A stretch of DNA of 64,000 nt, taken from positions 1 through 64,000 of the IMG/VR virus record IMGVR_UViG_3300044846_004348. One strand, 5' to 3'. The position numbers and the translations under genes are program-made. This document shows, in pieces, positions 2 through 49,124 of the stretch. This DNA comes from a virus. The stretch's first letter is position 1. Each line of letters opens with the position of its first letter. Below the pieces are notes generated by a model. The model was given only the letters and a program-made list of their open reading frames with translations, had not been told where the DNA came from and searched no databases.

Positions 2-3000
2 ACTACTGAATCAGAAGATTTATTTGAACCAATTGCAACTTGGTCTGGTACAGGTCCAATGTTGGATACTTCTGGAATTCTTGGAGAACCTAGGACTCCT
101 ATTGATGAGCCTAATGCTCGTCTTCCTGGAAGACTACCTGCTTTAACTGCTCAGAGTGTAAATACACTTTTAAACGATTACCCTTCTTGGGTCGCTGGTC
201 AAAGATTAGAAGCAGAAGCTGCACCAACTCTTACTAGAGATGGTTTTACTCCGAAAAGTTCTGACACATTTGAAAAGTGGAATCCTTTAGTTGCCCCTAA
301 TGCTTATAACAATCCTTGGTTAAGAACTTGGTTAGATGCTGGTGCGCAAAATAGATTTTGGTACAACCCAATAGTTCCAGAAGGAACTATTGAGGCTAAA
401 AAATCTGCTCAGGAAGTTGGTCCAGAGCCAAAAATAAACTCAACTACGACTGGTAAATCTTCATCTTCTGGTGGTGGTGTTACATACACTCCAAGAAGTT
501 TTGGTGACCCAAAGCAATATGTACAAAAAGCTAAGCAAAGAGTTTATGCTCCACAATTTGCTACTAGTATTACTGCTGCTGCAGATGTAAATGCTCTCAC
601 ACCAGAAACTTCTGATGTTCCTCCTATTTATATGGCAATCGTTGCTAGTGATGACCCTCAAGCAGTTATGGATTTAGTTTCATTAGTACCTGCTAATAAA
701 GAATCAAGCACTCCAACAACTTTTACAAGACAAAATGGTGAGTGGGTTAAAGAAGAGCAAGTTTTAAGAGATTTAAACAGTCCAACACCTCCACCTGTAG
801 TTGTGTTAGATAATGAAACACTTGCAGATGTGGTTCAACAAGTTGACGCAAATGCTCAGACTGCTTCTGCGTGGATGGAAAACTTTTTTGAAGACAGAAT
901 GCTTCAAATTGTTTGGGGTCCAAAGAATGAAATTCTTTCTTTAGTTGCTGCTGGTGGTTTGGATAGAAATCGTGGTAACGCTGAAGAACTTCGCCGTTAC
1001 TGGACAGTTGGTAGAGGTGGCGCAAAAATTCGTTGGAATACTCCAGGAGACTGGACTCGTTGCAACAGATATTTGTCTAAATATTTAGGTCCTCGTGCTA
1101 AGGGTTATTGCTCTCTTCGTCATAAAGAAATGACTGGTGTATGGCCTGGAAGTAAATACAATGTCGGGAAGAAAAAATCTTTAGTATCTTCAGTATTTTC
1201 TGAAGAGGATTTTGAGAATTCAGTTATTGAGAAGGCTAAACTTCGTGCTCAAATTGCTTCTATTAAAGCAAGAGTAATTGTTGCATCTGTAGATGAAAAC
1301 CAAGAGGGTTCTAGTTTCACTATTCCTTTGGTTATCCCAGAGGGAGTTGATTCTGGCGATGGAAGATACTTTGAAAAAGGCGCTATTGAAATGCGCGAAC
1401 TTCCACTACCTCTTTTGTGGCAAATAAAAACTGCAGAGGGTCACTCTGGCTCAGTTGTAGTTGGAAAAATTACTAATATGGATAGAACTGATGACGGTAT
1501 TGGTAATGCTAAAGGTGTTTTTGATACTGGTGAGTATGGAAAAGAAGCTGAGCGACTAGTCCGAGGAGGATTTATTCGCGGAGTTTCAGCAGATATGGAT
1601 AAGTTTGAAGCCAACGAAGAAGAATCAGAAGCTTCAGAAGAATCAGATAACAAGAAGGTTAGCGCTGGTAGAATGAAAATAACGAAAGCCCGCGTAATGG
1701 CGGTTACTATCGTTCCAAAACCAGCATTTCAAGAATGCAGAATTATTCTTGATGAAATGGTTTCCTATAAGGAGGAAGACGTGGTTCCAGACGGCGTATA
1801 CGTCGAAGGTATAGATGAGTTGGAAGCTTCAGCTTTAGTTGCTTGCGGTGTAGTTGCTGGTGCAATTCCAGTTAATCCCCCAATGAACTGGTTTGACAAT
1901 CCAAAACTTAAAAAACCAACAGGTTTAACTGTTACAGACGAAGGTCAAGTTTTCGGTCACATTGCTGCTTGGCATGTAGATCATATTGGTATGTCTTTTG
2001 GTACTAGACCACCAAGAAGTAAAAGTAATTATTCATACTTTCATACAGGATTAGTTAAGACAGATTCGGGAGAAGATGTTCCAGTTGGTCAATTGACTTT
2101 AGCTGGTGGACATGCTCCATTAGAAGCATCTGCTCACGAGGCAGTTCGTCACTACGATGACACGGCATCTGCTGTAGCAGACGTTCATGCTGGTGAAGAT
2201 TCTTACGGTATTTGGGTTGCTGGAGCACTTCGTCCAGGAACTAGTCCAGAGCAAGTTCGCGCACTTCGTGCATCTGCACCTTCTGGTGATTGGCGTCCAA
2301 TTAAAGGTTCTCTTGAACTTGTTGCAGTTTGTCAAGTAAATGTTCCAGGATTCCCAATTGCTCGTGCTCGTGTTGCATCAGGTCAGGTAATGGCTTTGGT
2401 TGCAGCAGGTGCAAGTACCCTTGCAAAATTAAAAAATGATCCTTTAAAAGAATTAAATACAAGAATTCAAAAATTAGAACAAGCAGAGAAAGCCCCACTA
2501 GTTGCTGCCGCTCAAGAAGTTGCAGACAGATTTAAAACTATGGAAGCTTCAATTAAAGCTGAAGAACTTTCTGCTCGTTTTGCTGAAATTAAAAAAGATT
2601 CAGATCCAGACTGGACTTACATGGAGCAGACTTTGGATGATAATCCAGAGGCAGAACTAGCAGTAGTTTCTAGAAGAATTAGAGAGCGTCTAGCAAAAGA
2701 AGGTAAGGCTCTCAAAGATGGTTCTTACCCTATTAGAAATGTTGCAGATCTTAAGAATGCAATTCAAGCCTATGGAAGAGCAAAAGAAGGCAAGCGTGCA
2801 TTGGTTAAAAAGCACATTATGCGTCGTGCTCGTGGTTTAGAAAGAGCAGACTTAATTCCAGATAAGTGGAAAGAAGCAGCTCTTTTAAACTACTTAGGCG
2901 AATCTGAAGAACTTTTTGAAAATTCTGAAGCAGTTTTTCAAAAGTCCCCAATTGAAGATGCTATTGATATTGAGGGTTTAACAGATGAAGAGATTGATCA

Positions 3001-13800: not shown

Positions 13801-14100
13801 TCCGAGTTAAGTCTTCTACCTACGGTATTAGATTTCGCTGAGGGTGGAACCGTATACCCAAGATCTGGTGGAGTTATTGCAAGAGTTGCAGAAGCTGGCA
13901 GACCAGAAAGAATTGAACCTTTAGATCCTAATGGTTTATCTGAAAGAGATAAAGCAATAGTAAAAATGTTTGCTGGTGGTAGTGGTGCTGGTACTGGTCC
14001 GACTATAAATGTGTACCCATCTCAGGGGATGGATGAGAGACAACTTGCTGAAATAGTTTCAAGAAAACTTGCTTTTCAGATGCGTAAAGGCGGAATTTAA
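10897..14100 (+). CDS. Tape measure protein
   Basis: 1067 aa, Ala/Gly-rich helical, coiled-coil and hydrophobic stretches, C-terminal FAEGG..VAEAGRPERIEPL; SD GGAGG. Confidence 0.92.
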   Translation: MAVVGSASVVVNVITSGVDKQLSGAFSGGDRIGRDAGKKASAGFSKGFAGGGGGRRLFSDQFFKEADRARKTFQRLLRVGYALTPALAALAGILGNAAGALFLLATAAGTAAPALIVLPASLFAIAQAAVVAKVALMGVGKAIQAGLKPLKSGAAENKALENALERLEEARIRLARAEEDRAEIIADANKKIVDAEEDYIDSQYESEKAAKALSKAREEATEDLQQLRFETEDAAISEQKARLEFERSRESLQRVQDLPPNSRARREAELAFAEADLNLRRSIDKNSDLKKAEAEATAAGVDGSEKVLDASEALAEAKEREQKAYEAVGEAALDAARAQRDANRAVADAERALAEAKEDVADAAKGAKDSVDQFAEAMKRLSPEAQDFVRYMLSLKDSFQELRAAAGREFFPKLTLAIDNLVTNLLPKLNPLFERTGSILGDVAMDISNVVTSTENIGRLERIWSTNDQLIGNFGRSVGNLYEVLLILLDAAEPLIREFGEWIETITEGWQQTLNAEGAFDRLRGSFERAGEVAKLLGEILGNIFTGVLNLGKAANSGGALDLFLTRMRDATESFENFTGSEAGRKKAEEYFLTTAENALTLGRIVGKLLKPFGEIGASQDFGNFLGSLERAVETLTGTLDDLLADGILTSFGLFIEEFATTIAGFTVGGGITVFFDTLTGILEVINNIITSDAGKAFITTFAPILAFFSALGFAGGIAKFFGKVIVGTLGSAFGVLTGIFGAFSTAFRFLMTFFRNPAIIVRFISIAIAPLASAVGLAVGPFLLIVGAIALLVGVLVGAYQASEDFRTAVSELFAVVKESIVGALDQVKASFEDAFGPIDDIKTKIMDGFKVIGDFIATYVIPIFKVIIPAAIGYLGGIISGLIYVVKAVWDYFTFAFNMIKGIFKLFTGDTEGAVAAFKKAWEGLKSFFKNIVKAIYAPFAGLVNGIIRGINSIIRAKNKLTDNQTSELSLLPTVLDFAEGGTVYPRSGGVIARVAEAGRPERIEPLDPNGLSERDKAIVKMFAGGSGAGTGPTINVYPSQGMDERQLAEIVSRKLAFQMRKGGI

Positions 14101-16466
14101 TGACATTACTTAATCAAGGTAAAGAATTTGAATTAGTAAACAAAAGTTTAACTCCTGTTGAAGAACCTATTAAAACTGGTCTTAAACTCCCTGGAGATAT
14201 AGTTTTAGGTAGTTTTGTTTTTAACACTGTCGATGAGTATGACGTTATTTGGGTTGTGACTGATATTGGTGGTTGGTGGAATCCACCAGAAGCAGAGATG
14301 CCAGACATAACTAGAGGTTACGGTGATGGCTCTTACGATTTTCAAGGAAGGTATGTAGCAAGAGAGTTAACTTTAGAAGGTGTATTTTTAACCAAAGACC
14401 CTTCACTAGTTGAAGCTGCTAGGGATCGACTTATCGAGGCAACTAATCTTGTTTACAAAGGTGCTTGGTTAATTACTGGTACTGATCCAAAAAGAGCTTC
14501 TTTTGTTCGTCTTTCTGGTCAAGTAGAAATTGAAACAACTAATGCGAGAGGTAGAACTGAGTTTTCTATTGGTCTTCGTGCTGCTGATCCTATTAAATAT
14601 GAGTGGAATGATTCCGAACCAGATGGTTATACGGTTATAGAGATACCTGCTAAAAACTTTATTAATGGAGATTCTGGCGTACAGACTATTACAAATATAG
14701 GTAATTATGATGTGCCTGTTTATTTGGAAGTAGTCGGTCCAGTTACATCTCCAGCAACTATTTTTAATAGAACTAGAGAAGAACTTGTATTAATGGTTTC
14801 TGGTATTAGAGGAAGACTTGGTTCTGTAATTGATAATAAAGAGCTTACTTTAGTTGAGTCTAGTTTAAAAGATGTGGCCACTCTTACTACACGTACAGCT
14901 CATAATTTTCAAGTAGGAGATGAAATTTTAGTTGAGGGAGTTGATAATATATTTGATGGACTATATATAATATCTTCTGTCCCTAGTGCAACAACATTTA
15001 CATATGAAATTGAAAATATCTCTAGTACATTACCAATTGTTCAAAAAAGTTTATTTAACAATATTGCCACTATCGAAACATCTGAAAATCATTCTTTTGA
15101 AGTAAACGATTCTATTTTTATATCTGGAGTGGATTCTGTATTTAATGGTACTAGCAGGATAACTGCAAAAACACTAAACACATTTTCTTTTGCAAAAACT
15201 AGAAATACTTCTACCTCTATAACTGGTGCAAGTATTATCTCAAATCAAGCAAATATTATTACTTTAGACCCCCACGAATTTATTCTCGGTGAAACTGTAA
15301 CTATTTCTGGTCTAGGGGGTAACTATAACGGCTCTTACATTATAACTTCTATTCCATCTTCTACAACATTTACTTATGCCGTAACTAGAACTAATGCTAG
15401 AAGTATTTTGAATAGGGTTTTAACTTCAAATGTTGCAACAATAACTTTAGACAATAATCATAATTTTCTTAGTGGAGAAAGTGTGCTTATTTCTGGAATA
15501 AATGATGCCTTTGATGGTGTTTATCAAATATCTTCTATTCCAACAACTACTACTTTTACATACAACCGTGAGAGATCTACTTCAAAAACAGTTACGGTTA
15601 AATCTAGAAATTCAAATACATCCATAATAACAACTGGTAGCGCCCACGGTTTATCTGCTACCGAGCAAGTTACTATCTCGGATGTAGAAGGCTTTAATGG
15701 AACATTTACTGTAACTTCAATTTTAAGTTCTAATAGTTTTAGTTTTGCCCAAACTGGCTCTAATCTAAACCCGACTGCAGTTTCTAATGGAAAACTAGTT
15801 GTAAATAAAAGACTAGTTTCTAAAAGAAAAAGACAAGGAAATGTTGCAACTATTACTACAGCAACCTCTCACGGGTTATTTGTAGGTGAAACTGTTAATA
15901 TTGAAGGAGTAGAAGCTAGTTATAACGGTGCAGGTAAAACTGTTACTGCTATACCTACAAGTAATTCTTTTACCTATTCTTCTACTGGTTCAGATGAAGC
16001 AGAACTTAACTCTGGAGGGTTAGTATCACTACTAGGAAACTACGCGGTATTACCAAGTAGCGCCTCGGTTGTGGGATTTGCCACAGTTTCTGGAAGTCTG
16101 CCTTTTACTTCAGTCCCTGGAACTGCAGTAGTTAATAATTATGTAGGCACCCCTATCTCTGGTGGAGTGACTCCACTAGTTACTGGCGGTAGGGCAACTA
16201 AAAAGAATGAAGTTCCTTTTACCCCTGGAGTTTCTATCTCTACAACAGCTACTGCAACTTATGGTCCAGATTTGTTAGAAATAGATACTCTTAACAGAGA
16301 TGTATTTTTAAACGGAGAAGTTGAAGGGGCTAGGGCAAAAATAGATATTCTTGCTGATTTTATAAAACTATCCCCTGGTGAAAATATTATTGAGTTTGAA
16401 GATTCTGGTAATCCAAATAGCGACGCGCTGTTAAAAATTTACTATAGATCTGGATGGTTAGGTTAG
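14100..16466 (+). CDS. Distal tail protein (Dit-like) with six inserted FCCH-like repeats
   Basis: Follows the tape measure gene; Dit-type ends (GGWWNPPE, RELTLEG, LRAADPIKY, TNIGN / LSPGENII..YRSGW); six TTxxxH-G/N repeats. Confidence 0.8.
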   Translation: MTLLNQGKEFELVNKSLTPVEEPIKTGLKLPGDIVLGSFVFNTVDEYDVIWVVTDIGGWWNPPEAEMPDITRGYGDGSYDFQGRYVARELTLEGVFLTKDPSLVEAARDRLIEATNLVYKGAWLITGTDPKRASFVRLSGQVEIETTNARGRTEFSIGLRAADPIKYEWNDSEPDGYTVIEIPAKNFINGDSGVQTITNIGNYDVPVYLEVVGPVTSPATIFNRTREELVLMVSGIRGRLGSVIDNKELTLVESSLKDVATLTTRTAHNFQVGDEILVEGVDNIFDGLYIISSVPSATTFTYEIENISSTLPIVQKSLFNNIATIETSENHSFEVNDSIFISGVDSVFNGTSRITAKTLNTFSFAKTRNTSTSITGASIISNQANIITLDPHEFILGETVTISGLGGNYNGSYIITSIPSSTTFTYAVTRTNARSILNRVLTSNVATITLDNNHNFLSGESVLISGINDAFDGVYQISSIPTTTTFTYNRERSTSKTVTVKSRNSNTSIITTGSAHGLSATEQVTISDVEGFNGTFTVTSILSSNSFSFAQTGSNLNPTAVSNGKLVVNKRLVSKRKRQGNVATITTATSHGLFVGETVNIEGVEASYNGAGKTVTAIPTSNSFTYSSTGSDEAELNSGGLVSLLGNYAVLPSSASVVGFATVSGSLPFTSVPGTAVVNNYVGTPISGGVTPLVTGGRATKKNEVPFTPGVSISTTATATYGPDLLEIDTLNRDVFLNGEVEGARAKIDILADFIKLSPGENIIEFEDSGNPNSDALLKIYYRSGWLG

Positions 16467-16514: not shown

Positions 16515-18539
16515 ATGGCTATAGAAGAAAGCATTGAATATAGATTCTTTCTTACGGATCTTTTAAGTAATGAAATTATCTCTGAAGTACCTTTTAAAGA
16601 TGTAAGTTTTAGTAGACAAATTCGTCGTGCTGGCGAGTTTTCAGGAAAAATTTCATTTATACCTCAGACTAGCGGTTTAAATCTTTACGAATCGACAATG
16701 CCAGGCAGAACTGGGCTATATGTAATGAGGAATGGAGTTTGTGTTTGGGGCGGAATTATATGGTCTAGATCTTATGATGTTTTGTCAAAAGAGTTAGATG
16801 TTTCTGCTGCAGAATTTATTAGTTATTTCTATCACAGGCATGTTTGGCAAACTTTAGTTTATGGTTCTAAATTTATTGGTATAGCTTCATACTCAATCAC
16901 TTCTGGTGTTGCAACTGTTGTGACAGAAGAACCTCACGGATTTGAGACTGGTGATAAAGTTGCAATTACTTTTACTAGTCCTTTAGTAGACGGTGTTAGG
17001 ACTATATCTTCAGTAAATTCGGCTAATCAATTCACTTTTAATGTGGCTTCTGCAAACGTACTATCTACGTCAATAAATAGTGGTGCAGTTAGAGGCTTAG
17101 TAGATACTTTTGATTTTGTTAGAGACATACTAAATTTAACTGCTACAGATCTTTCAGGTATAAACTTTGCAAATGAAGAGATAGAGCCTTCTCAAACTTT
17201 TGAAGTCGCTATTATCTCAAAACAAAGATTTAATAATTTAGTTACTTTAGTTACCTCTTCTGCACATAATTTAGTTATTGGTCAAGAAGTGTTAGTTTAT
17301 GAAGTTGACACTGCATTAAATGGTTCTCATGTCGTTACTAGTACCCCAGACGATACTACTTTTACATACGATTTACCTGGACCAAACATTACTAAAAGCA
17401 CTCTTCCTGGGTTAAAAACAATAAACATATCTACAAAAACTCTTACTGCTTCTCCTAGTGCAACTACTATAGATAGTCCAGCAACAGCCACAATTGTCCT
17501 CGCTGAGCCTCATGGAGCTGGGACAGGTCAAAGAGTTTTACTTCAAGGTGTTGATTCATTTTTTGTAGATAGACTCGATAAAAGATATGACGGATTTTTT
17601 GAGATTATAAATGTTCCTAATTCTACAACTTTTGAATACACCACTACAGGTATTTTAAGTGAGACTACCGCCTCAGTTATAGGTGGTACTGCAACTTTTG
17701 GTAGCAAAATAGTTTATGGTTCTTATGGAAGTTTTTCTTATAATGCAGACATCGATATAAGAGTATCTAATGAAACTAGCGGTCTGTTTCAGGAACAAAA
17801 AATTTATAGAGGTTATGAGTTAAAAACTATTGGTGAAATATTAGAAGAGTACTCAGAAAATATAAACGGTTTTGAGTATAGAATTGATTGTGACTACGAT
17901 TACGATACAGCTTCATTTACTAGAACATTTGTGTTGTTAGATTTATCTGGTCCTCCTGAATTAGAGGAGGGTGGTTTGCCAGATATATCAAGGTTTGGTG
18001 CAAATCAATTTGTTTTTGAATATCCAGGAAACATCTCAAAATTTACTGTTGAAGAGTCAGCAGAAAACGCTGCTACCAGAATGTTTACTATGGGTAAAAT
18101 TGACGATATATCTGGTGACTCAAGTCAACCTTACTCTGCTGACTCGGCTACTCAGCTACTAAACAATTTAAATGGTAGAAGTTGGCCACTACTTGATCAA
18201 GCAGAATCTGTAGATGGGGTATCAAGTGAGCAAGAACTCTATTCTTACGCTAAAGACTATCTTTATGAGTCACTACCACCAATTAGTGAGTTTTCATTGT
18301 CTGTAAATGGGTCTTTATCTCCTATTGTTGGTAGCTATAAACCAGGTGATTTTTGTTCAATAATAGTTAATGACGAGTTTGTTCGTGAAAGGTTGGCTAG
18401 TGATTCTGAGCCAAGAAGCGACATCATCATTAGAAAAATTGTTAGTTATTCTGTAACTGTGCCTGATAGTCCTCACTACCCAGAGGATGTTTCATTAGAA
18501 CTTATTACTGATTGGAAGGTAGAAGATAGTGGCAACTAG
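16515..18539 (+). CDS. Minor tail / baseplate hub protein (Tal-like) with three FCCH-like repeats
   Basis: YVMRNGVCVWGGIIW, GFEYRID, FEYPGNI, GSYKPGD motifs; follows Dit. Confidence 0.75.
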   Translation: MAIEESIEYRFFLTDLLSNEIISEVPFKDVSFSRQIRRAGEFSGKISFIPQTSGLNLYESTMPGRTGLYVMRNGVCVWGGIIWSRSYDVLSKELDVSAAEFISYFYHRHVWQTLVYGSKFIGIASYSITSGVATVVTEEPHGFETGDKVAITFTSPLVDGVRTISSVNSANQFTFNVASANVLSTSINSGAVRGLVDTFDFVRDILNLTATDLSGINFANEEIEPSQTFEVAIISKQRFNNLVTLVTSSAHNLVIGQEVLVYEVDTALNGSHVVTSTPDDTTFTYDLPGPNITKSTLPGLKTINISTKTLTASPSATTIDSPATATIVLAEPHGAGTGQRVLLQGVDSFFVDRLDKRYDGFFEIINVPNSTTFEYTTTGILSETTASVIGGTATFGSKIVYGSYGSFSYNADIDIRVSNETSGLFQEQKIYRGYELKTIGEILEEYSENINGFEYRIDCDYDYDTASFTRTFVLLDLSGPPELEEGGLPDISRFGANQFVFEYPGNISKFTVEESAENAATRMFTMGKIDDISGDSSQPYSADSATQLLNNLNGRSWPLLDQAESVDGVSSEQELYSYAKDYLYESLPPISEFSLSVNGSLSPIVGSYKPGDFCSIIVNDEFVRERLASDSEPRSDIIIRKIVSYSVTVPDSPHYPEDVSLELITDWKVEDSGN

Positions 18540-37989: not shown

Positions 37990-40900
37990 CTACGCCTGAG
38001 CTTCAGCCCACGACAATTTCGCTGATGTCAGTGTTTCTGAGCCAGTTAAACGTGCTACAGCAATTGTTATAATATCTGGACCATCTGGGAATACGCTGTT
38101 TCCACCTAAAATAGAGTTAGATAGTTCAAACAAATCACCGATGTCTACAGTAGTTCCTAATTCTTGACCATTTGCACCACTTGCACGGAAATTATAAACT
38201 TGAATACCACCAGAAATTGTGTCATTTGATGTGTGCTCAATTGTTTGAACTAGAGAAGGGGACTCTACTCCTACGAAATTTAAGTTATTTAGACGACCGT
38301 TGAGTAGTACTTTAACATCAATTAATTGATTAGTCTGTACACCAATTTCATTTAGACGAAGTTGCATTCTATTTATAATATCTCTATCACCTAATTGACC
38401 AGTTAATCCTTCGGAAACAGACGGACTTAAGCGAAGAGAAATTAGTGGCTGGTAGTTACCTCCAGAAGTGTTATTTAAACTTCCAGCAGGTGTAAATGAG
38501 TATGTTGATAAAGTATTACCTTGGTTGAAGAAGTTGACAACATTTTTTGAAACTAATGTTCCACCAGGAGGAGTTGCAGATCCTACATCTCTTCTATCAA
38601 CGAAAGCGTCGTAAGTAAATTGATTAGCAGCAGGTACAGTTGCAATTGTGTAGGATCCGTTAAATGAAGCAGCAAAAGCATCGGTGCTCATATTTACAAA
38701 TACACTATCCCCAACGTTGTATCCATGATTAGCACTCGTTGTTATTGTAACTCTGAAAGAGTTCTTTACTCTAGTAGTTACTGTAAATGTGGTTGCTTGT
38801 AAGTCGGCTAGTCTGTAATAAAGAATTATGTTATTAGTGTTTAGTGGTCTTATAAAATATGTTGCTTCGTTTTGAAGATTGTTAAAAGCATTTATTCCTG
38901 CAACTGTTTGTATAGCTGGGTTTTGGCTATTAGGTTGAAGGGAGCCAGAACCACTTATACCTTTAAATTGTAGTGGATCTCCTAAAGCAAAACCGTGTGA
39001 AGGTATGTTTATAATTTCGGTTTGAGTGTTAATTGCACTAGAACCAAAAGTTTTTGCGGTAGTTCCACCAATATTTAAAGAGGCACTAGATTTAGTGAAC
39101 AAATAGGCTCTATCATCATCAAATGTTCCATCCATCATTACCGAAGTTCCCCAGTGGAATAGGTATGGAATGTAGGTAGGGTTTTCAAATGTTACTACTT
39201 CGTATCGAGCAGGTAAGTTACCTGAGCGGAAGTATGATTCAAATTTTTGGTTGTTGTGAACAAACTCATGGACATAGCGAACTTGACCGTCTACTGTCTT
39301 AAATCCATAACGAATCTTACCTGCACCGTACCAAGAGTAATCCATATAAATCATTTGAATTTTAGATAGATCTAGGTTGTATCCAGTAATACCAGTGCCA
39401 TCGCAAGGATCTATTGACCATTGTGATTGAGGAACTCTTGTGTCTTCGGTAAGTGTTGCAATGATACCTGTTTTAGCGGAAACAAAAGAGTGTACAGTTC
39501 CCGATCCAACATCAGATAAGGTTACAAATTGCTCGGCAGTTGGACTTGCTTTTAACTTTAATGTGTTATTAGTTAGTACACTAATGTAGTAAGTTCTTCC
39601 ATTAATTAACCCGCCTATAGGGGTTCCATCAATTGAATTGTAAATTACTGGAAGGTTTTCAGTGTATCCATGATTTAATATAGTAATAACATTAGTTGAG
39701 GTATTTACTGCTGTACTTGGATTAAATTCTGTTTCATTACCAGAAGAACCTTTGTATTCAGGTTTAATAGAAATACGACTATCACTAGTTATTTCAGAAA
39801 CTTTATATGATTGACCTCTAAGAACAATGCTGTCTCCTACAGTTAGTTGAGCTTGGAACGCTGTATTTGTTCCAAAAATAAACTCTGATCCTTGTAAAGC
39901 AGCTATAGTTCCAGATATTTGTTGTGTTGAAGATCTACGCACACAGTAAAGTTCTTGTCCATCGAACTCAAAGAACATTCCGTTTTGATCATCGAACATT
40001 CCAGCGCGAAGGGCGCCATTTGTCCAAGCAGTAACGTGCATTCTTGGATATCCGTATGATCTGTTTTCTGTAATATTTACATTAGATATGTAGGTAAAGT
40101 TAAATGCGTCAATTACAGTAACTTGGAAAGTTCCGTTATAAATTTGACTTAACACATTTTGGGAATCAAAGGCATCATCAATTTTTACAAATAGACCGTT
40201 AATTAGTCCGTGAGGTCTTCTGGTCCTAACTGTGATAACGGAAGATGACCCTACTCTTCTCATATCTTCAACATCTATTGATGGTTTAAAGTTGATACCT
40301 GCAGATGTTTGAATACCTTTACCCGATTGATAACGGAAATATTTACGGGTTTGACGAATTATCTTTCCGTACCAGGTGCCGTATCCTGTAGACATTTCTA
40401 CTCCACCATCAAATGGACGATGTAGTGAGTATCCTTGAGGACGAACATATATGAATGTTGGGTACGAGTAACTTACATTTGTGTAGGCAGTGCTGTAAGG
40501 TCTGTCTACTGTAATTTGATCGTCTCCACCTATAGCAGCGATAGTTCTAATAATTGGTGTAGATGGTGTTATTTTAGATAGTTTTAAAGCAAAGCCAGTT
40601 CCCGCTGAAGAAATATCTACAGCGTTTGTATCGGCTGTTGCATCGGCTAGCGTGTTATAAAGTTTTACACTATTACTACTTAGTGGCGTTAGTGTTCCAG
40701 TTACTCCTGCTCCAGCTATATTACCCCCTGTAACTGTTGCAATAGCTTGTATTCTATTTGCAGCTGGCACATGAACTACAGTAAATGTACCGTTAAACAC
40801 TTCTGGATTTACACCAGTTATAGATGAGATAGTAAATCTATTACCAGCACGTAAGTTATGGTTTATTGATGTTGTGTAGTCTAGTATATTATCTGTTCTA

Positions 40901-43900
40901 TTTCTATTGTTTACTGTAAAAGTAGTTGAGTTGGGTATAGATCTTACAAAGTAGTAGTATCCGTCAATTAAAGGACTTGGTGATACCCCAGCAACACCTG
41001 ATGTTTGAGCAACACCAGTTGTCTGCACTTCATTAGTAAGAGTCGATCCTAATGAATTTGCACCTGTATATGTAAACTGAAAAGTATCTGGGGTTCCAGT
41101 AATTGTGTATGTTCCATTAAACTCAACAGCAGTTGTAGAACTTAGTCCACTAATAGTTACAATGTTACCAATTGTGTAACCATGGGCTTCTCTAGTTCTA
41201 ATTGTTCTACTAGTACCTGAACCAGAAATTTGGAAAATTTCTCTTCTAGGTCCACCAGTGCCTGGACTGAAAACAACTGAATCTTCTGTACTAAATTGGT
41301 GAGAGGCTAGAGTTATAACTTCTGTAGAAGTGTTTACATCTGAGGCAGCAAAAAATGCAGGTTGTTCTGTGTCTGGAGGGAATATTCTTAGTCTATCTCC
41401 CACTTTTAGAATTTTACTAAAGTTTGTTCCATCTCCATCTACTAGTACGGAGTTGACTGTAGTGTTTAGGGTTCCCGTTCCTGTAATATTTCCATTAATT
41501 TGAGAACTAGTTAAAGTGTGGGATAGACCTGCTCCAAAACTTGTAATGGAGATAGGAACACCTGATTGTGAGTTTGCTACAGTACTAGCCAGTCTTAACC
41601 AGTCTTTAGAAACTGCTATTACGTAATAATCATCACCGTCTGTTAGCCCGCCAATTGGTGTTTCTCCGCCGTCAGAGTATGTAACTTTTGTTCCAGTTAA
41701 AAATCCGTGTGAAGGTATTTTTATATAATTTTCTGATACGTCTACATTGAATCTTGGACTAAATGTTTTAACAATCTCTGGTACAGATCCTGAAGCAGTT
41801 ACTTCAAATTCGGTTGCACTAGTTACATCGCTAATTGAGTATGTACCATCTGGTGTTCTAATTAATGATTTTAATTTATGTCTACCGACTGGTGCTGGGG
41901 ATGCAATTAAATCTATTGCAGTTCCATTTGATGCATTAATACTACTTGTTGCTAGTTTTATTGTGTTTCCGTCTATTACAATTACATAATATGGAGTTGC
42001 ACTTACCAAACCATTTATATCAGTTTGACCTACCGTGTCATATTCTACTAGCTCACCTGTAGAAAAACCATGATTTGGGATTGTTAAAGTGTTTTCAACA
42101 AAATCTACAACGAATGTAGTTACCGAATGAGACCCTATACCTACTCCAATAATATTTTCTACTAAAGTAAGATTTTTGTCGTTGTACAGTCTAAGTGTGT
42201 TAGCATCTATTCTCTGTATAAAGTAAATTTTTTGATTTTGTAGTCCAAAAATATTTGTATTAGTGTCTATTTCTCCAACAACACCAGTAGCACCTACTTC
42301 TCTAAGTAGTGTGTTTCCAGTTGTTGCTGTTTGTATAGGTATAGTATTTAACGTAATTGTTGCACTAGCGTTGGCGGCTGGTACTTGATCTACAGTTAAA
42401 GCTCCAGAAACTGCTGCAGTAGTTACAGTTCCTGATGTTTGTGTAAAAAATTGAATTCTGTTAGCAGCAGGTATTGCCGTAATAGTGTGAGTTCCGTTGA
42501 ATATATTTGCATCTGCACCTGACATGCTGGATATAGTTACAGTATCGCCAACTTGTAAATTATGGGTTGTATTTAAGGTCACATCTGCTACGTTTACTGT
42601 TCTTAATCTATTAGTTACAGTAAATGTTGTAACGTTGGCTGCTTGAGGTCTGGTTACAGTGAATATTGTGCTTGAAGGAACGTTGTTAATTACAAATGTT
42701 CCATTAAATATGTTTGGATTATTTGCAGATATGCCAGAAATTGTTACTGTTGTTCCCACTTCAAGATGGTGAGGTAGGGTGGTTGTATATCTAGCCACCG
42801 TGTTTGAAATAAGTTCTCTATTGGATACAACTCTTGTGTATGTTGGAATGGTGTATCTTAGTTGATTTACACCAGCCATTGTTCCACCAACTACTTCATT
42901 TGATATGGTCCCACTAGTTGGTGTTGTAAAAGTTACTCTAGTGCTTGAAGGAATACTACTAATAACCCATTCGCCATTAAAGGTTTGAGGAACTGAACCT
43001 CCAATATTATTAATTCTTATTCTTTCACCCACTTCAAAACCGTGAGCTGCGCTTACAGTTACGTCAGCAACGTTTGCGCTTCTACTTCTTGCAGTAATAG
43101 TGAAAGCAGGTCTAGTCATGAGAGAAGCTCTTACAGTTGTTCCAGTAGTAGCACCGTTGGCAACAGTAATAGAAGTTGTACCTATATATGTAAATTGATT
43201 TGCAGAAGGGACACCATTTACTGTGAACTCTCCTATAAAACTGGAAGCATTTACTCCAGTCATATTTATAATTCTTATTCTGTCGCCAATAGCAAAGTAA
43301 TGAGGATTATCTGTGGTTATAGTTCTTGTAGTAGCTTCACTCTGTCTAGCAGTAATGTTTACTTGGTAATTCCAAAAATTACCATCGTTACCGCTGTTGT
43401 TTTCTAGGTATACGTAGTTATTAGTTTCTAAATTGTGTGGCGCTGCGGTGTTAACAACTAAGTTAGTGTTACTAAACAGTCTTCTAGTTGATAGTGTAGA
43501 TTTTTTTTCAGGACTATCAAACGTTATAACTGATGCAGAAGGAAGTGAAGTTACTCTATACTCTCCATTGAAAACATCTTGATTTGTATTAGTTATACCA
43601 GTTACAACAAATCTATCATTAACTTGAAGATCGTGGTTAGCATCAAAGTTTAAAGTTCCAACAGTTCTATTTGCTAGATTTCTGTTATTAATTCTTACAC
43701 CAATTTTTGAAGTTTTACCTATTGCTGTAGTTGTTGATAAAGTGTAGCTTGAAGGTGGCATCTGATATCTAAACTGAGTGGAGCTGCTTATAGTGTCTAC
43801 AATTGCATCTCTATAAACAAAACCAGCATTAGTTATGCCACCAGATCCAACATTTGTATTGCTAAAAGTAATATTTGGATCTAAGTTAGAACTTCCTACT

Positions 43901-46581
43901 GATTGAATTCTGTAGTCTTGATTTGCTGTATATGTAAATGTATTAGTTCCAGGTACAGAGGTTATAAAGTAGGTTCCATTAAAATATTCACCTATGTCTC
44001 CTTGAATACCTACAACACTTCCTGAAATATTTTTAACAACTACTGGAAAACCATTTGGTAGGTAGTGTGGCTCTGTTGTTACAATAGTTCTAGTAGTTCC
44101 TGAAGAAGATATACTTCTAATATTTGTTGTAAAAAGATGAGGTAGATAGTCTAAATCTGTTCTAGCTATAATATATGCTGCAACATCGGTATTAGTCTCT
44201 AAAGTTAAACTAAAACTTTCTTCAGCTGTATAAGTTATTTGGTTAGATGATGGTACACCAGTTACAACATATCTTCCATTAAATCTTGTGTTATTTGTGC
44301 CTGTGTTTCCTACAACTTGAAAATAGTTTCCAGTAGCTAAGTTATGGCTACTAGCAAGAGTGAGTGTTCTTGTTTGACCAGAACTTCCTCTTTGTGTTAT
44401 TAATATTTGAGGAGTGGCTATACCTGGTATTGAGAAGTTATCAAATGTTACTCTACTTCCGTTTTGTAAATTGTGAGGCTCTGTTGTTGTAATAAATCTA
44501 GAATTTCCGCTACTAGAAACGTTAGCTATAGTTAAGTCTCTACTCTTTTGATATCTTACTGTTTGTCCAGAAACATAACCGTGACTTGGTATGTAGATAC
44601 TGTCTTCTGAAATGTTTACAATATTCAAAATAAGACTGTGGTTTATTCCAGTGCCAGCAGCAGATAAGTCAATTACTGGACCCTGTAGCGATTGACTTAA
44701 TGTAAATCTATTTTCGTCTACCACTTCTTTTATATAATATGTAGAATTATTTTGTAAAGGTGTAATAGCTGTTCCAGTACCGACTGAATATCTTACTGGC
44801 TGATCCAGTAAAAATCCGTGATTACTTATAGTAATAATATTTAGAGCTGTATTAACAGTAACGTCTCTAAAACCCTCTACTGCATTGATACTAGATGGAC
44901 CAGTAATATTTAAAGTAGTAAAATTAGGATCTGGAGTGCTACTTAATCTATAACTAAAATCATCTACTAAATTTATATAGTAAACCGTGTTTTGTGCTAA
45001 ACCTATAGGAGCTGTACCGTTAGTGAAATAGTTTACAGCTTCCCCGTTAAAGAACCCGTGTGCAGTTTTTTGACTAATTATTTCTGTGTCTAAATCTATA
45101 GTTATTGGTACTAATGCGTGGAAAGAACTTCCAGCAGGGGCAATAGGAATTGCGTTTTCTTCATTGTTTGCATCTTCTGCAGTTGGGTGAAGTGTAAATC
45201 CAAACAAAGATCTTTCTACAAGAGTTACAGAAACTTCTCCTTCAACATCTCCTGTATTGTAAAGATTTAAGTTTTCAATTGGTTGACCTAGTAAAGTTGC
45301 AGATCCATCATATAAACCAGTAGATGTTGCAACATTTGTTGCTGTAGCAAATATGAATGAGCCACCACCACCACCAGTTAAACTTCCAATGCGATCGGTA
45401 GTTGCTCCACCACTGTAACCACCTGCTCCACCATTACCGCCCCAAGATTCGCCGTCTGAACCTGCTCCGCCGCCGAAACCACCTATTGCTGATGAGCCAC
45501 CAGCAGAAAAACCACCTACAAGACCATTGTTAAAGCCGCCGCCGCCGCCGCCTCGCTCAGAGTTTCCGCCTGCAGAGAAGAAACCTCCTCCACCACCACC
45601 AGCAGAACGTCCTGCTGCACCTTGACCGCCTTGACCACCAGTGTAACCTTGTTGCGATGTACCACCGATAGTTGTTAATACAGCATTAAAACCAAATTGT
45701 GTGTTAGATGAGGATGCTCCACCGCCAGCAACAAACAAAGGAATATTTCCAGCTTTTCTTACAACAAATGTTCCACCAGAAGATGCTGGCCATGTAATAT
45801 TATTAGGAGGTAGTTCTCCTCTTTGACCTATTGCAAAAGTAATAATTTCGCCTTTAATTAAGCGAACACGACCTCTTACAATTGCACCACCGCCACCAAG
45901 TGCTCTACCTTGACGACCAGGAGCACCTTTTACTGTAAATTCGTACAAACCATCTTCTGGAACTGTCCAGTCTTGGTATCCCTGAAAACTACCTAAATTT
46001 AAATATGTATTTTCCCAAGTTTCTGCAGCATAAGCTGATCTCATTTGTGCAAGATTTGGTCCTTGCCCTCCAGTAACCCCAGCGGATGTAAATGTGTGAT
46101 TATCAAATAGATATAAGGCAGAGCCACCAAGACCTGTTAAAAGATTTTTTACATAATATGTATTACCTGAAGTAAGACCTGTAATTGGGGTTGAGTCGGT
46201 AAGGTATTTTACTGCTTGAACATCATCGTATTTTACGTTAGTTATGTTTATAGAATTATCGTAAACAGATGGGAAGTTGAAAGTTACGGTTCCTGCTGAA
46301 TATTCAGTTAAATTTATATTAGTAGTAGAGGCTGCTGTAGTTGTAAAACCTATAGAAAAATTATCAGCAGTGTTTAGAAAATATACTTCACCACTGTCTA
46401 AACCATCTATAGTTCCTGTAGTTTCTCTTACTACCCAAGCGCTATCATTTACTAAATTTGTAGCTTTTGTGGTATTGATGTCTCTACCAGGAAAGTAAAT
46501 ATAATCTTCATCTAAGTTAACATTTACTTTTTGAAGAGTGTGTGTACCTGACCCACCTACAGCGGTAATATTAATAGTCAA
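37990..46581 (-). CDS. Giant virion structural protein (2863 aa) with nested FCCH-like repeats and a glycine-rich domain
   Basis: TTG start with SD GAGG; more than 20 HG/HN barrel repeats of two types; poly-Gly domain; core motifs HRPFDGG, RQTRKYFRYQSGKG, MDYSWYGAG. Confidence 0.8.
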   Translation of the reverse strand: MTINITAVGGSGTHTLQKVNVNLDEDYIYFPGRDINTTKATNLVNDSAWVVRETTGTIDGLDSGEVYFLNTADNFSIGFTTTAASTTNINLTEYSAGTVTFNFPSVYDNSINITNVKYDDVQAVKYLTDSTPITGLTSGNTYYVKNLLTGLGGSALYLFDNHTFTSAGVTGGQGPNLAQMRSAYAAETWENTYLNLGSFQGYQDWTVPEDGLYEFTVKGAPGRQGRALGGGGAIVRGRVRLIKGEIITFAIGQRGELPPNNITWPASSGGTFVVRKAGNIPLFVAGGGASSSNTQFGFNAVLTTIGGTSQQGYTGGQGGQGAAGRSAGGGGGGFFSAGGNSERGGGGGGFNNGLVGGFSAGGSSAIGGFGGGAGSDGESWGGNGGAGGYSGGATTDRIGSLTGGGGGSFIFATATNVATSTGLYDGSATLLGQPIENLNLYNTGDVEGEVSVTLVERSLFGFTLHPTAEDANNEENAIPIAPAGSSFHALVPITIDLDTEIISQKTAHGFFNGEAVNYFTNGTAPIGLAQNTVYYINLVDDFSYRLSSTPDPNFTTLNITGPSSINAVEGFRDVTVNTALNIITISNHGFLLDQPVRYSVGTGTAITPLQNNSTYYIKEVVDENRFTLSQSLQGPVIDLSAAGTGINHSLILNIVNISEDSIYIPSHGYVSGQTVRYQKSRDLTIANVSSSGNSRFITTTEPHNLQNGSRVTFDNFSIPGIATPQILITQRGSSGQTRTLTLASSHNLATGNYFQVVGNTGTNNTRFNGRYVVTGVPSSNQITYTAEESFSLTLETNTDVAAYIIARTDLDYLPHLFTTNIRSISSSGTTRTIVTTEPHYLPNGFPVVVKNISGSVVGIQGDIGEYFNGTYFITSVPGTNTFTYTANQDYRIQSVGSSNLDPNITFSNTNVGSGGITNAGFVYRDAIVDTISSSTQFRYQMPPSSYTLSTTTAIGKTSKIGVRINNRNLANRTVGTLNFDANHDLQVNDRFVVTGITNTNQDVFNGEYRVTSLPSASVITFDSPEKKSTLSTRRLFSNTNLVVNTAAPHNLETNNYVYLENNSGNDGNFWNYQVNITARQSEATTRTITTDNPHYFAIGDRIRIINMTGVNASSFIGEFTVNGVPSANQFTYIGTTSITVANGATTGTTVRASLMTRPAFTITARSRSANVADVTVSAAHGFEVGERIRINNIGGSVPQTFNGEWVISSIPSSTRVTFTTPTSGTISNEVVGGTMAGVNQLRYTIPTYTRVVSNRELISNTVARYTTTLPHHLEVGTTVTISGISANNPNIFNGTFVINNVPSSTIFTVTRPQAANVTTFTVTNRLRTVNVADVTLNTTHNLQVGDTVTISSMSGADANIFNGTHTITAIPAANRIQFFTQTSGTVTTAAVSGALTVDQVPAANASATITLNTIPIQTATTGNTLLREVGATGVVGEIDTNTNIFGLQNQKIYFIQRIDANTLRLYNDKNLTLVENIIGVGIGSHSVTTFVVDFVENTLTIPNHGFSTGELVEYDTVGQTDINGLVSATPYYVIVIDGNTIKLATSSINASNGTAIDLIASPAPVGRHKLKSLIRTPDGTYSISDVTSATEFEVTASGSVPEIVKTFSPRFNVDVSENYIKIPSHGFLTGTKVTYSDGGETPIGGLTDGDDYYVIAVSKDWLRLASTVANSQSGVPISITSFGAGLSHTLTSSQINGNITGTGTLNTTVNSVLVDGDGTNFSKILKVGDRLRIFPPDTEQPAFFAASDVNTSTEVITLASHQFSTEDSVVFSPGTGGPRREIFQISGSGTSRTIRTREAHGYTIGNIVTISGLSSTTAVEFNGTYTITGTPDTFQFTYTGANSLGSTLTNEVQTTGVAQTSGVAGVSPSPLIDGYYYFVRSIPNSTTFTVNNRNRTDNILDYTTSINHNLRAGNRFTISSITGVNPEVFNGTFTVVHVPAANRIQAIATVTGGNIAGAGVTGTLTPLSSNSVKLYNTLADATADTNAVDISSAGTGFALKLSKITPSTPIIRTIAAIGGDDQITVDRPYSTAYTNVSYSYPTFIYVRPQGYSLHRPFDGGVEMSTGYGTWYGKIIRQTRKYFRYQSGKGIQTSAGINFKPSIDVEDMRRVGSSSVITVRTRRPHGLINGLFVKIDDAFDSQNVLSQIYNGTFQVTVIDAFNFTYISNVNITENRSYGYPRMHVTAWTNGALRAGMFDDQNGMFFEFDGQELYCVRRSSTQQISGTIAALQGSEFIFGTNTAFQAQLTVGDSIVLRGQSYKVSEITSDSRISIKPEYKGSSGNETEFNPSTAVNTSTNVITILNHGYTENLPVIYNSIDGTPIGGLINGRTYYISVLTNNTLKLKASPTAEQFVTLSDVGSGTVHSFVSAKTGIIATLTEDTRVPQSQWSIDPCDGTGITGYNLDLSKIQMIYMDYSWYGAGKIRYGFKTVDGQVRYVHEFVHNNQKFESYFRSGNLPARYEVVTFENPTYIPYLFHWGTSVMMDGTFDDDRAYLFTKSSASLNIGGTTAKTFGSSAINTQTEIINIPSHGFALGDPLQFKGISGSGSLQPNSQNPAIQTVAGINAFNNLQNEATYFIRPLNTNNIILYYRLADLQATTFTVTTRVKNSFRVTITTSANHGYNVGDSVFVNMSTDAFAASFNGSYTIATVPAANQFTYDAFVDRRDVGSATPPGGTLVSKNVVNFFNQGNTLSTYSFTPAGSLNNTSGGNYQPLISLRLSPSVSEGLTGQLGDRDIINRMQLRLNEIGVQTNQLIDVKVLLNGRLNNLNFVGVESPSLVQTIEHTSNDTISGGIQVYNFRASGANGQELGTTVDIGDLFELSNSILGGNSVFPDGPDIITIAVARLTGSETLTSAKLSWAEAQA

Positions 46582-46643: not shown

Positions 46644-49124
46644 TCATCGGACGTAAACCGCCAAGTTTAGGAAAGTTCTGTTTGCTGCACCGTTGGAACT
46701 ATTTCCAAAGTTCCACCAGTGTCCGTGTGCTCTCCAGTGCGAGTTAGATGTGTATGTAAATCCAATACCACCGCCCCATCTATCAGACGTTGTTCCTGTA
46801 CCACCCATACCTATCATCGAGGCACCGTGACCAGTTACAAGGTTTGATGTTGCTGTGGTGTATCCGCCTGTCATGTATTGGTTTATATTTCCATAATTAT
46901 TTGCATAGTCAGATAAAACTTTAAATCCAAATCTTGCGCCAGTTTGTAGTAATTGTTGACGAACGCTAGTGTGGGTGCCTAAACGACGTACCATAGACCA
47001 CTCGTTTGGATCGTTTACATAAATAGATGGGAATAGCCAAGTATTTCCATATGTAGATTGATTTGTTCCACCAGTAACAGATCTCATATTTGGAATGGTG
47101 ACATTGTGTCTCCAACCAATTCTATTTGCAGTGTTTGTTATTTGAACTATCATCACATCGTTGAAAGGTAGTTTGTAGAATAGAGGACTAAATGCATCAA
47201 CATCGTTAAGATCTTGACTATTTGCAGAAGCAAATAAACTTGTAAATTGATTATCTGCATTCCAAGCCCAACCATCCCATATAGGACCAAATGTGTGGGA
47301 TGCTCCCGATTGAGGTGCATTACCACTAGGTAGCGAGTTAGTTAATAATGTGTTGCTAGATAACTTCATAATTTGAGTCCAACCACCGCCCTCAACTCCA
47401 AAGAAGCAGTGAGTTAAATGTGCTGTAGCAGAACCTGCTGGTTTAATCCAATAAGCACCAGTTGTAGATGCTGGTGCGGCTAAAAGAATAGCGGCAGCGC
47501 TTGTAGCGGCTCTTGCTTCAGTTGTTCCGTCTAATACAAAACCTTTATCTCTCGTTAAAGAAATATGTGTGCCGTCATATACTCTTTTAACAAAATAGTA
47601 ATTAGCTGGAGCTTCGACAGTTGTTATTGGTGCCCCTACTGGATATGAGTACTTGACCATATCTGCTTCTTCAAAATTATGACCAGGTACTGCAAGTATT
47701 TCTTTATCTATTGAAACAGATATTGCTTTTAATGTTTGAGTACCAGTTCCACCAGAAATAGCACTTAGAGCGGATCCTCCAGGTTCTGCAGATAAGTTGA
47801 CAATATTTGTCTGAGCATTAATGCCAGCAACAAAGTATGTAGTGTTATTAGTTAATCCAGTAGCAGCGGAACCAGAAGTTGAGTAAAGAAGCATCTGTCC
47901 ATTTGCCCAGTTTGTGTTTGAAGCTAAAGTAAAGTTAGTAATACCGCTTCCACTTATTGAACTAATAGTGTATGTTGATCCTTCTGAATTATCTCCATCA
48001 AACTCGTAACTTGTGCCTTGTATTAAAGTAGTAGAGATTTGGTTTGTAGTGTCTAAATTTCCTCCAGCAAAAGTTGCCACCAAGTCTGCTTTTTGAAATG
48101 TTCCAGTTATATTAGATGTAATATCTATAACTGTTCCATTAGGAATTTGACTGACTGTAAATGTAGAAGAACTAGTTCCTAAACTGTTGGCAGTTTTAAT
48201 AAACACGACACCGCGAGGGTTAGTTGCAAAAAAACCTTCAGCTGCACTAACACTATATTGAAGAGCAGACCCTACAATAAGATTTGAAAAATTTTCTGAA
48301 GTATGTGAGACAGTTATTGTGTCTGATTCAGTATTTACACCTGAAACTGTACTAGCAACGGATATAGGGCTACTTGATGCATTATTAGATAGACTTAATA
48401 AACTTTGTGAAGCTGTATTTGATCCATCAAAAATTCTAGCAGTTGCGTTATTTGAAGCATCAAAGGATTTTGATTCTGTGTTAGTTGAATCAAACTCTTG
48501 ACTAATAGTTGAGTTTAAGTTAATAAAATAGAAAGGAGTATTTGGTCCGAACCCATGAGGACTTTCTGTTTTTATAGTTAAAGTAGAAGTTGGCTCTGCG
48601 TCTGTAACGATACCTTCTGAGTCAGATATGCGAATTTGAGACCCTTGAAAAAATTCACCTGTAATAATAGATGTATACAAATCTTCAATACTTTTAGTTT
48701 GAAATTGATTCTCTCTCGCTAAATATGTAAAAGTTCTAGCATTAGGTATTGAGTTAATAATATAAGATCCATCAGCAGTTATTTCTTTAGTTCCACTAAC
48801 ACTTATAGGTATACCTGCAGCAAGACCGTGATCTAGGGCGGTAGTAATTGTAATTTCTCTTGAACCAACTATTGTAGTTATTGATTCTATGTTAGGGATA
48901 GTTGTATCACCAGATTTTGAAAAAAATGAAGGAATATTATTAATTAATTCTACTGTTTCCCATTTTGTTGGCTGTAAACCGTACTCAAAGTCTGTATCGA
49001 TTAAGTTTTCAGGTTGGGAAACCCTAAGTTTAGTTACTGGATCGATAAACTCTTTTGGAAAAGAAATTTCTCCGCCAGTAGTGCCGCCGCCGCCGCCGCT
49101 AGAGCCTCCTAGAAAACCTGGCAT
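46644..49124 (-). CDS. Virion structural protein (826 aa) with FCCH-like repeats and a C-terminal fibrinogen/lectin-like domain
   Basis: KLRVSQPENLIDTDFEYG N-terminal motif; barrel repeats; GAYWIKP..THC..EGGGWTQIM fibrinogen-like start; SD GAGGT. Confidence 0.75.
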   Translation of the reverse strand: MPGFLGGSSGGGGGTTGGEISFPKEFIDPVTKLRVSQPENLIDTDFEYGLQPTKWETVELINNIPSFFSKSGDTTIPNIESITTIVGSREITITTALDHGLAAGIPISVSGTKEITADGSYIINSIPNARTFTYLARENQFQTKSIEDLYTSIITGEFFQGSQIRISDSEGIVTDAEPTSTLTIKTESPHGFGPNTPFYFINLNSTISQEFDSTNTESKSFDASNNATARIFDGSNTASQSLLSLSNNASSSPISVASTVSGVNTESDTITVSHTSENFSNLIVGSALQYSVSAAEGFFATNPRGVVFIKTANSLGTSSSTFTVSQIPNGTVIDITSNITGTFQKADLVATFAGGNLDTTNQISTTLIQGTSYEFDGDNSEGSTYTISSISGSGITNFTLASNTNWANGQMLLYSTSGSAATGLTNNTTYFVAGINAQTNIVNLSAEPGGSALSAISGGTGTQTLKAISVSIDKEILAVPGHNFEEADMVKYSYPVGAPITTVEAPANYYFVKRVYDGTHISLTRDKGFVLDGTTEARAATSAAAILLAAPASTTGAYWIKPAGSATAHLTHCFFGVEGGGWTQIMKLSSNTLLTNSLPSGNAPQSGASHTFGPIWDGWAWNADNQFTSLFASANSQDLNDVDAFSPLFYKLPFNDVMIVQITNTANRIGWRHNVTIPNMRSVTGGTNQSTYGNTWLFPSIYVNDPNEWSMVRRLGTHTSVRQQLLQTGARFGFKVLSDYANNYGNINQYMTGGYTTATSNLVTGHGASMIGMGGTGTTSDRWGGGIGFTYTSNSHWRAHGHWWNFGNSSNGAANRTFLNLAVYVR

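Follow-up and report, generated by a model that had tools for sequence, protein, structure and literature searches.

The window analysed here is a stretch of 64,000 nucleotides (positions 1 to 64,000) of IMG/VR virus record IMGVR_UViG_3300044846_004348, which is 92,642 bases long and estimated to be 71% complete. Its plus strand encodes the portal, the major head protein, the major tail protein, the tape measure and the minor tail proteins, and an open reading frame of 2863 codons (Table 1) lies on the minus strand, in a module with genes for collagen-like fibres, a tryptophan halogenase and a glycosyltransferase. The layout is that of a siphovirus-type genome, and the source is an uncultured freshwater phage. 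The TTG start of the reading frame is preceded by a Shine-Dalgarno-like GGAAGAGG, and its position is identical in the orthologues of the protein, of which 47 are near full length (2839-2907 aa, 35-78% identity). The only named one is an 'ALK tyrosine kinase receptor' of the metagenome-assembled Actinomycetia phage DSL-LC01, the sole match of the gene in a megablast search against phage records; the paper on this phage does not discuss the protein.

The encoded protein contains three kinds of barrel unit, referred to as types A, B and C, together with an ALK-like domain near the N-terminus and a conserved core at the C-terminus (Table 1). PHROG profiles match it with virion structural, baseplate-wedge and tail-fibre families, and with phrog_22713 in the ALK-like region. 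Neither the N-terminal ring domain of Dit nor any Dit or minor-tail family was found among its Pfam and PHROG matches, and the Dit-like gene of the phage lies at a separate locus (14100-16466, plus strand).

Table 1. Features of the 2863-aa protein, with residue ranges, positions in the window and the basis of each assignment
Feature	Residues	Window position	Strand	Basis or remark
Open reading frame, 2863 aa	1-2863	37990..46581	-	2863 open codons, TTG start
ALK/LTK-like TNF-like and glycine-rich domain	~160-470	45172..46104	-	family profile
Two contiguous type-B units	493-564, 574-648	44638..45105	-	B profile, iE 1e-25 and 1e-30
Split type-B unit, N-half	654-682	44536..44622	-	B profile; pLDDT 82-86
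Guest block of nine type-A units	683-1439	42265..44535	-	HMM scans; AlphaFold2 pLDDT mostly 90-96
A1, predicted host of A_746 and A_839	683-719, 919-953
A_983, standing alone in the block
A2 (N-half), predicted host of A_1094, A_1180 and A_1271	1029-1071
A_1271, predicted host of A_1340 (1314-1400)	1248-1313, 1401-1414
Closing strands of the nine-A block	1401-1439
Split type-B unit, C-half	1440-1480	42142..42264	-	B profile; pLDDT 81-90
Two contiguous type-B units	1490-1563, 1612-1688	41518..42114	-	HMM
Split type-C unit, N-part	1701-1737	41371..41481	-	contiguous-C profile positions 3-31
B2, in three pieces	1745-1777, 1862-1884, 1968-2005	40567..41349	-	HMM pieces; pLDDT 80-93
B2 guests A_1800 and A_1908	1778-1860, 1886-1966			in two different loops
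Putative closing segment of split C	2008-2030	40492..40560	-	hhalign; pLDDT 65-69
Conserved C-terminal core	2036-2863	37993..40476	-	phrog_5838, E 7e-152, 5 stretches
Core decorations: A_2124, contiguous C, B	2108-2171, 2222-2281, 2291-2364
Core decoration: B carrying A_2619	2517-2603 (B), 2597-2680 (A_2619)

The core, encompassing the C-terminal 828 residues, is homologous to cyanomyophage virion structural proteins (169 phage records by tblastn) and is the best-conserved part of the family, at 63-83% identity. Its counterpart in cyanophage S-RSM4, gp036 (1108 aa, phrog_5838), which the record annotates with similarity to a structural protein of S-PM2, is homologous to it in three blocks of 33-39% identity and shares the terminal ...EAQA motif, but has neither the trunk of B and C barrels nor the nests described below, nor the B unit at residues 2291-2364, which appears as an insertion between gp036 residues only five apart. 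While gp036 residues 320-1108 match the core, its N-terminal domain (residues 94-270) matches residues 19-192 of the 826-aa protein encoded by the gene next upstream (46644-49124, minus strand; 34% identity, E 1e-17), so that a single gene of the cyanophage has its counterparts in portions of two neighbouring genes of this phage. In an AlphaFold2 model of residues 1690-2863, the core itself has a pLDDT below 50 and the barrels inserted into it one of 85-93; its fold may depend on oligomerisation or on a partner. A jelly-roll or lectin-like sandwich was considered for the core and set aside, as the corresponding VIA matches (Z ~6) fall on low-confidence parts of the model only, and a search of the ESM Atlas with the core returned unnamed viral clusters only. 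Part of the core (residues 344-430 of the query) recurs in compact form outside the window, in a 414-aa reading frame ~28 kb away (match at 74344-74601, minus strand; 43% identity, E 1e-17).

Repeat units and their order along the chain

The initial annotation had counted, by eye, about 13 type-A and about 10 type-B repeats. Our own profiles, built first from contiguous copies within the 2863-aa protein and later from units of its orthologues (277 of type A, 229 of type B), arrive at the same numbers, with 13 type-A units (11 complete and 2 split) and 10 type-B units (6 complete and 4 interrupted), and two type-C barrels, one contiguous and one split, complete the set. The partial profile matches fall into complementary pairs.

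The sole Pfam match of the protein is E1_FCCH (PF16190), at 36.7 bits against a cut-off of 29.5. Predicted models of type-A units superpose on the FCCH domain of Uba1 (Z 9.8-10, rmsd 2.3-2.5 over 77-78 residues) and on the barrel of the phi92 endosialidase (Z 11.2-11.4, rmsd 2.0), and DSSP assigns six strands to each unit; type A is thus, as modelled, a six-stranded antiparallel barrel of the E1-FCCH-like kind. Pairwise identities among the A units range from 17 to 49%, which indicates that the duplications are old and that none is recent. The contiguous type-C barrel (residues 2222-2281) matches the N-terminal domain of the F2-pyocin side fibre (25ve_A residues 6-65, E 8e-5).

Towards the N-terminus, the family profile matches ALK ectodomain chains (7ls0_A and others, E 7e-11 over ~260 residues), and PF12810 (ALK_LTK glycine-rich) is precomputed on orthologues. 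In ALK and LTK the TNF-like and glycine-rich combination belongs to a receptor ectodomain, whereas here it is part of a phage structural protein, where it is known from this sequence match. The type-B unit that precedes it, at residues 107-147, covers profile positions 6-46 only (unit and domain together span 45172-46263, minus strand), and a weak candidate for its last strands lies past the domain, near residues 470-495. With a partial B unit before it and candidate strands behind it, the ALK-like domain may itself be the guest of a B barrel.

The first of the two nests follows after two contiguous B units. It had been proposed that a type-B unit opens near 44600 and closes only near 42200, and the two motifs are indeed found at 44619-44545 and 42255-42184, in complementary halves of the B profile: positions 2-33 are covered by residues 654-685 (iE 1e-8) and positions 29-56 by residues 1440-1467 (iE 5e-8), and the scores are additive, with 54 bits for the joined halves against 29 and 28 for each alone. 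Between them lie 757 residues with nine A units, three of which are themselves interrupted, where the initial annotation had spoken of several; the three motifs taken for leftover closing strands at the end of the block were also placed correctly (42390-42271). The split of this third B unit is kept in all 47 full-length orthologues, down to 35% identity. If this were a simple tandem repeat protein, with the half-units as decayed repeats and no long-range complementation, it would fit the generic fact that repeat proteins gather partial copies, which is the only point in its favour. That the halves complement each other in profile coordinates, add up when joined, rank among the most conserved columns of their region and stand next to each other as one full-length B unit in more than 100 shorter homologues makes such an array very hard to believe.

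AlphaFold2, run on residues 640-1480 with a 48-row alignment, returned a confident model (mean pLDDT 89.4, pTM 0.73); for a segment of 841 residues such a pTM is high, and it speaks against beads on loose tethers. Half-units are modelled at pLDDT 82-95, the halves of A units at 88-95, and the strand pattern of the split B unit is that of the contiguous B unit at 2291-2364, including an isolated bridge at the I.GL motif. A complex prediction with the two halves of the split B unit as separate chains (645-684 and 1436-1480) scored 0.19, below the mark of 0.32 that counts as an answer. Many phage fibres are trimeric and the conserved core is unfolded in the monomer prediction, as might be expected if the split units were completed in trans, by strand exchange between the chains of an oligomeric fibre; given that the monomer model is confident throughout residues 640-1480 and that contiguous homologues place both halves in one domain of one chain, we regard completion in trans as improbable.

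Within the block, the model suggests further levels. Barrel A1 consists of three strands (683-717), followed by two complete A units and then by exactly three more strands (921-952), which match positions 49-76 of the A profile, a match that is significant in some orthologues. Past the guests of A2, two strands of 33 and 17 residues (model residues 747-779 and 784-800) lead towards the C-half of the split B unit and, throughout, the strands behind each guest block fit, in their predicted order, those that its host is missing. The innermost barrel (model residues 675..762, that is, residues 1314-1401) superposes on the phi92 endosialidase barrel (VIA Z 11.2, rmsd 2.0 over 81 residues) and on Uba1 FCCH (Z 9.8). 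In the same VIA search, more than 20 unrelated six-stranded barrels, among them FNR-type FAD domains, ribosomal uL3 and elongation-factor domains, align with ~75 residues spread over model residues 608..775 (rmsd 2.6-3.0). As only ~75 residues of this 168-residue span are used and the 88 in its middle form another barrel, the match is to a discontinuous host with a guest inside it, and the model thus predicts that the barrel at ~1248-1414 (A_1271) hosts the one at 1314-1401 (A_1340).

It could nonetheless be argued that nesting is confined to the outer level and that the nine A units form a tandem array with long shared strands, in which the half-units are degenerate linkers. By sequence, the C-halves of A1 (13 bits) and A2 (6 bits) hardly stand out, the very long strands behind A2 could form a continuous sheet, and a search of the homologues for an A host without its inner guest (the A-in-A levels) found none. 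Yet the N-half of A1 scores 27 bits (iE 2e-10) and its match stops at profile position 37, the later strands taking up positions 49-76; the half-units of type A are among the confidently modelled parts of the block; and the discontinuous superposition over 608..775 supports at least one A-in-A case. We therefore consider the outer-level reading unlikely, though more plausible than a plain tandem array or completion in trans. The two deepest levels of recursive nesting are drawn from the AlphaFold2 model of residues 640-1480, and that the large B barrel closes across 757 residues, and that A1 and A2 close too, we infer from confidence values, strand order and homologues. Foldseek searches of the PDB with the 841-residue model yielded generic multi-domain beta proteins only (TM ~0.1), and a search of the BFVD yielded many barrel-rich proteins of cyanophages and uncultured phages, none with a similar overall arrangement.

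Two further contiguous B units separate this nest from the second. Between them lies an orphan A-like hairpin (residues 1579-1600; 41782-41847, minus strand), which covers positions 46-67 of the A profile only and is present in every family member examined.

For the second nest, it had been claimed that a GTNF..KVGD barrel (motif at 41430-41395) encloses a B unit that carries two A units in different loops. The inner part of this arrangement is well defined: in the model of residues 1690-2863, one of the A units sits between strands 2 and 3 of the enclosed B unit (B2) and the other between its strands 3 and 4, the strand order of B2 matches that of the contiguous B unit at 2291-2364, and the guests correspond to exact 87-aa and 85-aa indels relative to a shorter homologue (P0052). 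The enclosing type-C barrel is the weakest link of the nesting by sequence. Its N-part is poorly predicted (pLDDT 33-55), but in hhalign comparisons the far segment alone aligns with columns 39-57 of the contiguous-C template (E 7e-4), and the N-part and far segment together with columns 2-57 (probability 95.9%, E 5.5e-9). Between the two, full-length relatives carry one, two or three B units, and this variable B content supports, together with the hhalign result, a split C barrel that encloses B2. An apparently contiguous C barrel at residues 1701-1775 proved to be an artefact of a profile that contained seven copies of that very region, and disappeared with a clean profile.

Natural homologues with and without guests

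The family comprises at least 476 proteins, of which the ~2860-aa form is a minority. In forms of 1930-2130 aa the B hosts are uninterrupted, and the indels relative to the 2863-aa protein are whole domains. P0052, a protein of 2003 aa with both ends complete and 58% identity over 1859 aligned residues, illustrates this: relative to the 2863-aa protein, it lacks ~757 aa at 680-1452, 87 aa at 1778-1864 and 85 aa at 1883-1967, has one additional A unit inside the ALK-like domain, and shows no other large differences. In P0052, P0059, P0060 and P0142, the third B unit, like B2, gives an uninterrupted match to the B profile from end to end. These shorter homologues are, as far as their sequences can tell, natural de-nested constructs, whose host barrels appear as ordinary B units.

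In 163 full-length relatives, the variation in guests is confined to a handful of fixed sites. The loop of the third B unit is either empty or filled with the nine-A block, and single A units occur at two C-terminal sites and, in some homologues, at about residue 225 in the ALK-like domain. In a tree built from the core, the proteins with the nest group together in one clade (support 0.80) that is sister to all others (0.92), which implies one gain or one loss of the nest and fits insertion and deletion alike.

Two of the checks that the initial annotation had proposed, a structure prediction and a comparison of insertion points across homologues, bear on its central claim that repeated insertion of domains into loops shaped the protein. 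For the outer levels, the guest-free homologues provide what we take to be decisive comparative evidence, whereas for the A-in-A levels the case is made by AlphaFold2 and VIA rather than by comparative data. The nesting is thus real at the outer levels and, with the model, about four levels deep; 'fractal', as it had been called, is better read as rhetoric.

Outside the family, an unrelated metagenomic protein of 1803 aa with a PF02839 carbohydrate-binding module (P0053) contains, at residues 1058-1290, the N-half of an A unit, two full A units and the C-half of an A unit, in what looks like an independent A-in-A nest.

A probable branched appendage and comparison with known systems

Together, the homology of the core to virion proteins, the match of a C barrel to a pyocin side-fibre domain and the neighbourhood of fibre genes point to a tail appendage. 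The reading we favour, with a probability of about three in four, is that the protein is a giant virion appendage of the side-fibre or adhesin type, whose polypeptide forms a tree of barrels inserted into a trunk and into each other. Its location in the virion is suggested by homology and gene neighbourhood, its branches would bind the host surface, and every split unit presumably closes as a barrel. The trunk would consist of the type-B and type-C barrels, the ALK-like domain and the conserved core; trunk and core would set the geometry, with the FCCH-like barrels projecting as lateral, surface-exposed branches. The largest of these would be the 757-residue block of nine A barrels in the strand 2-3 loop of the third B barrel, where A barrels would in turn take other A barrels into the loops between strands 3 and 4 and between strands 5 and 6; the deepest line of nesting would run from B through A2 and A_1271 to A_1340. 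Because the first and last strands of such a barrel lie side by side, it can drop into a loop, and adjacent termini combined with guest-tolerant loops allow one and the same fold to serve as guest and as host, which is what makes recursion possible.

More speculatively, the family might be a living series of insertion states, in which the loops of the trunk act as landing pads where FCCH-like and B barrels are gained, lost and swapped, and in which a single gain or loss of the nine-barrel nest as a whole gave rise to a new lateral branch for receptor binding and so shifted the host range. We put this forward tentatively and think it less probable than not; if true, it would offer a natural system for how recursive insertion builds branched proteins.

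The FCCH domain of Uba1, like the barrel of the phi92 endosialidase, is itself an inserted domain. Those proteins have one such barrel each, whereas the phage protein has 13, which host each other. The closest precedent for the recursion is Si3 of the cyanobacterial RNA polymerase, whose SBHM domains are assembled from distant parts of the chain (PMC10895346) and in which a 2026 survey of domain insertions describes six-level nesting as an extreme case (PMC13114784). As in the phage protein, recursive insertion places small beta domains within others of their own family; Si3 differs in its fold, which is SBHM and not an FCCH-type barrel, and in belonging to another host protein with another biology. 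Foldseek finds only a weak match to the Si3 structure (8emb_B, E 1.6e-4, TM 0.05-0.07), the units matching FCCH-type barrels instead. The claim that such an architecture is undescribed in phage virion proteins stands insofar as literature searches brought up no account of barrels nested in such a protein, but the principle of recursive insertion is already published for Si3; what is new is its occurrence in a phage virion protein and in a different fold.

Deep recursive insertion of domains thus has a second case, independent of Si3, and one with hundreds of natural relatives that either carry or lack individual guests at defined loops, so that the tolerance of inserted domains and the diversification of phage fibres become testable with real sequences. 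For annotators, it is a warning that a pair of half-repeats in a giant phage protein may be the opening and the closing part of a single domain.

FCCH domains have also been described facing outward on the tail tube proteins of siphophages (PMC13576161). In siphophage tail proteins these barrels are terminal or in tandem, unlike the nested ones of the 2863-aa protein. Elsewhere in the window, FCCH-like A units occur as six tandem copies in the Dit-like protein, Dit being where the initial annotation had seen the same principle at work, and as three copies in a Tal-like protein (16515-18539, plus strand). The major tail protein (6867-7913, plus strand) has a single copy, at its C-terminus, and so has the 826-aa protein, within its chain; all of these are contiguous.
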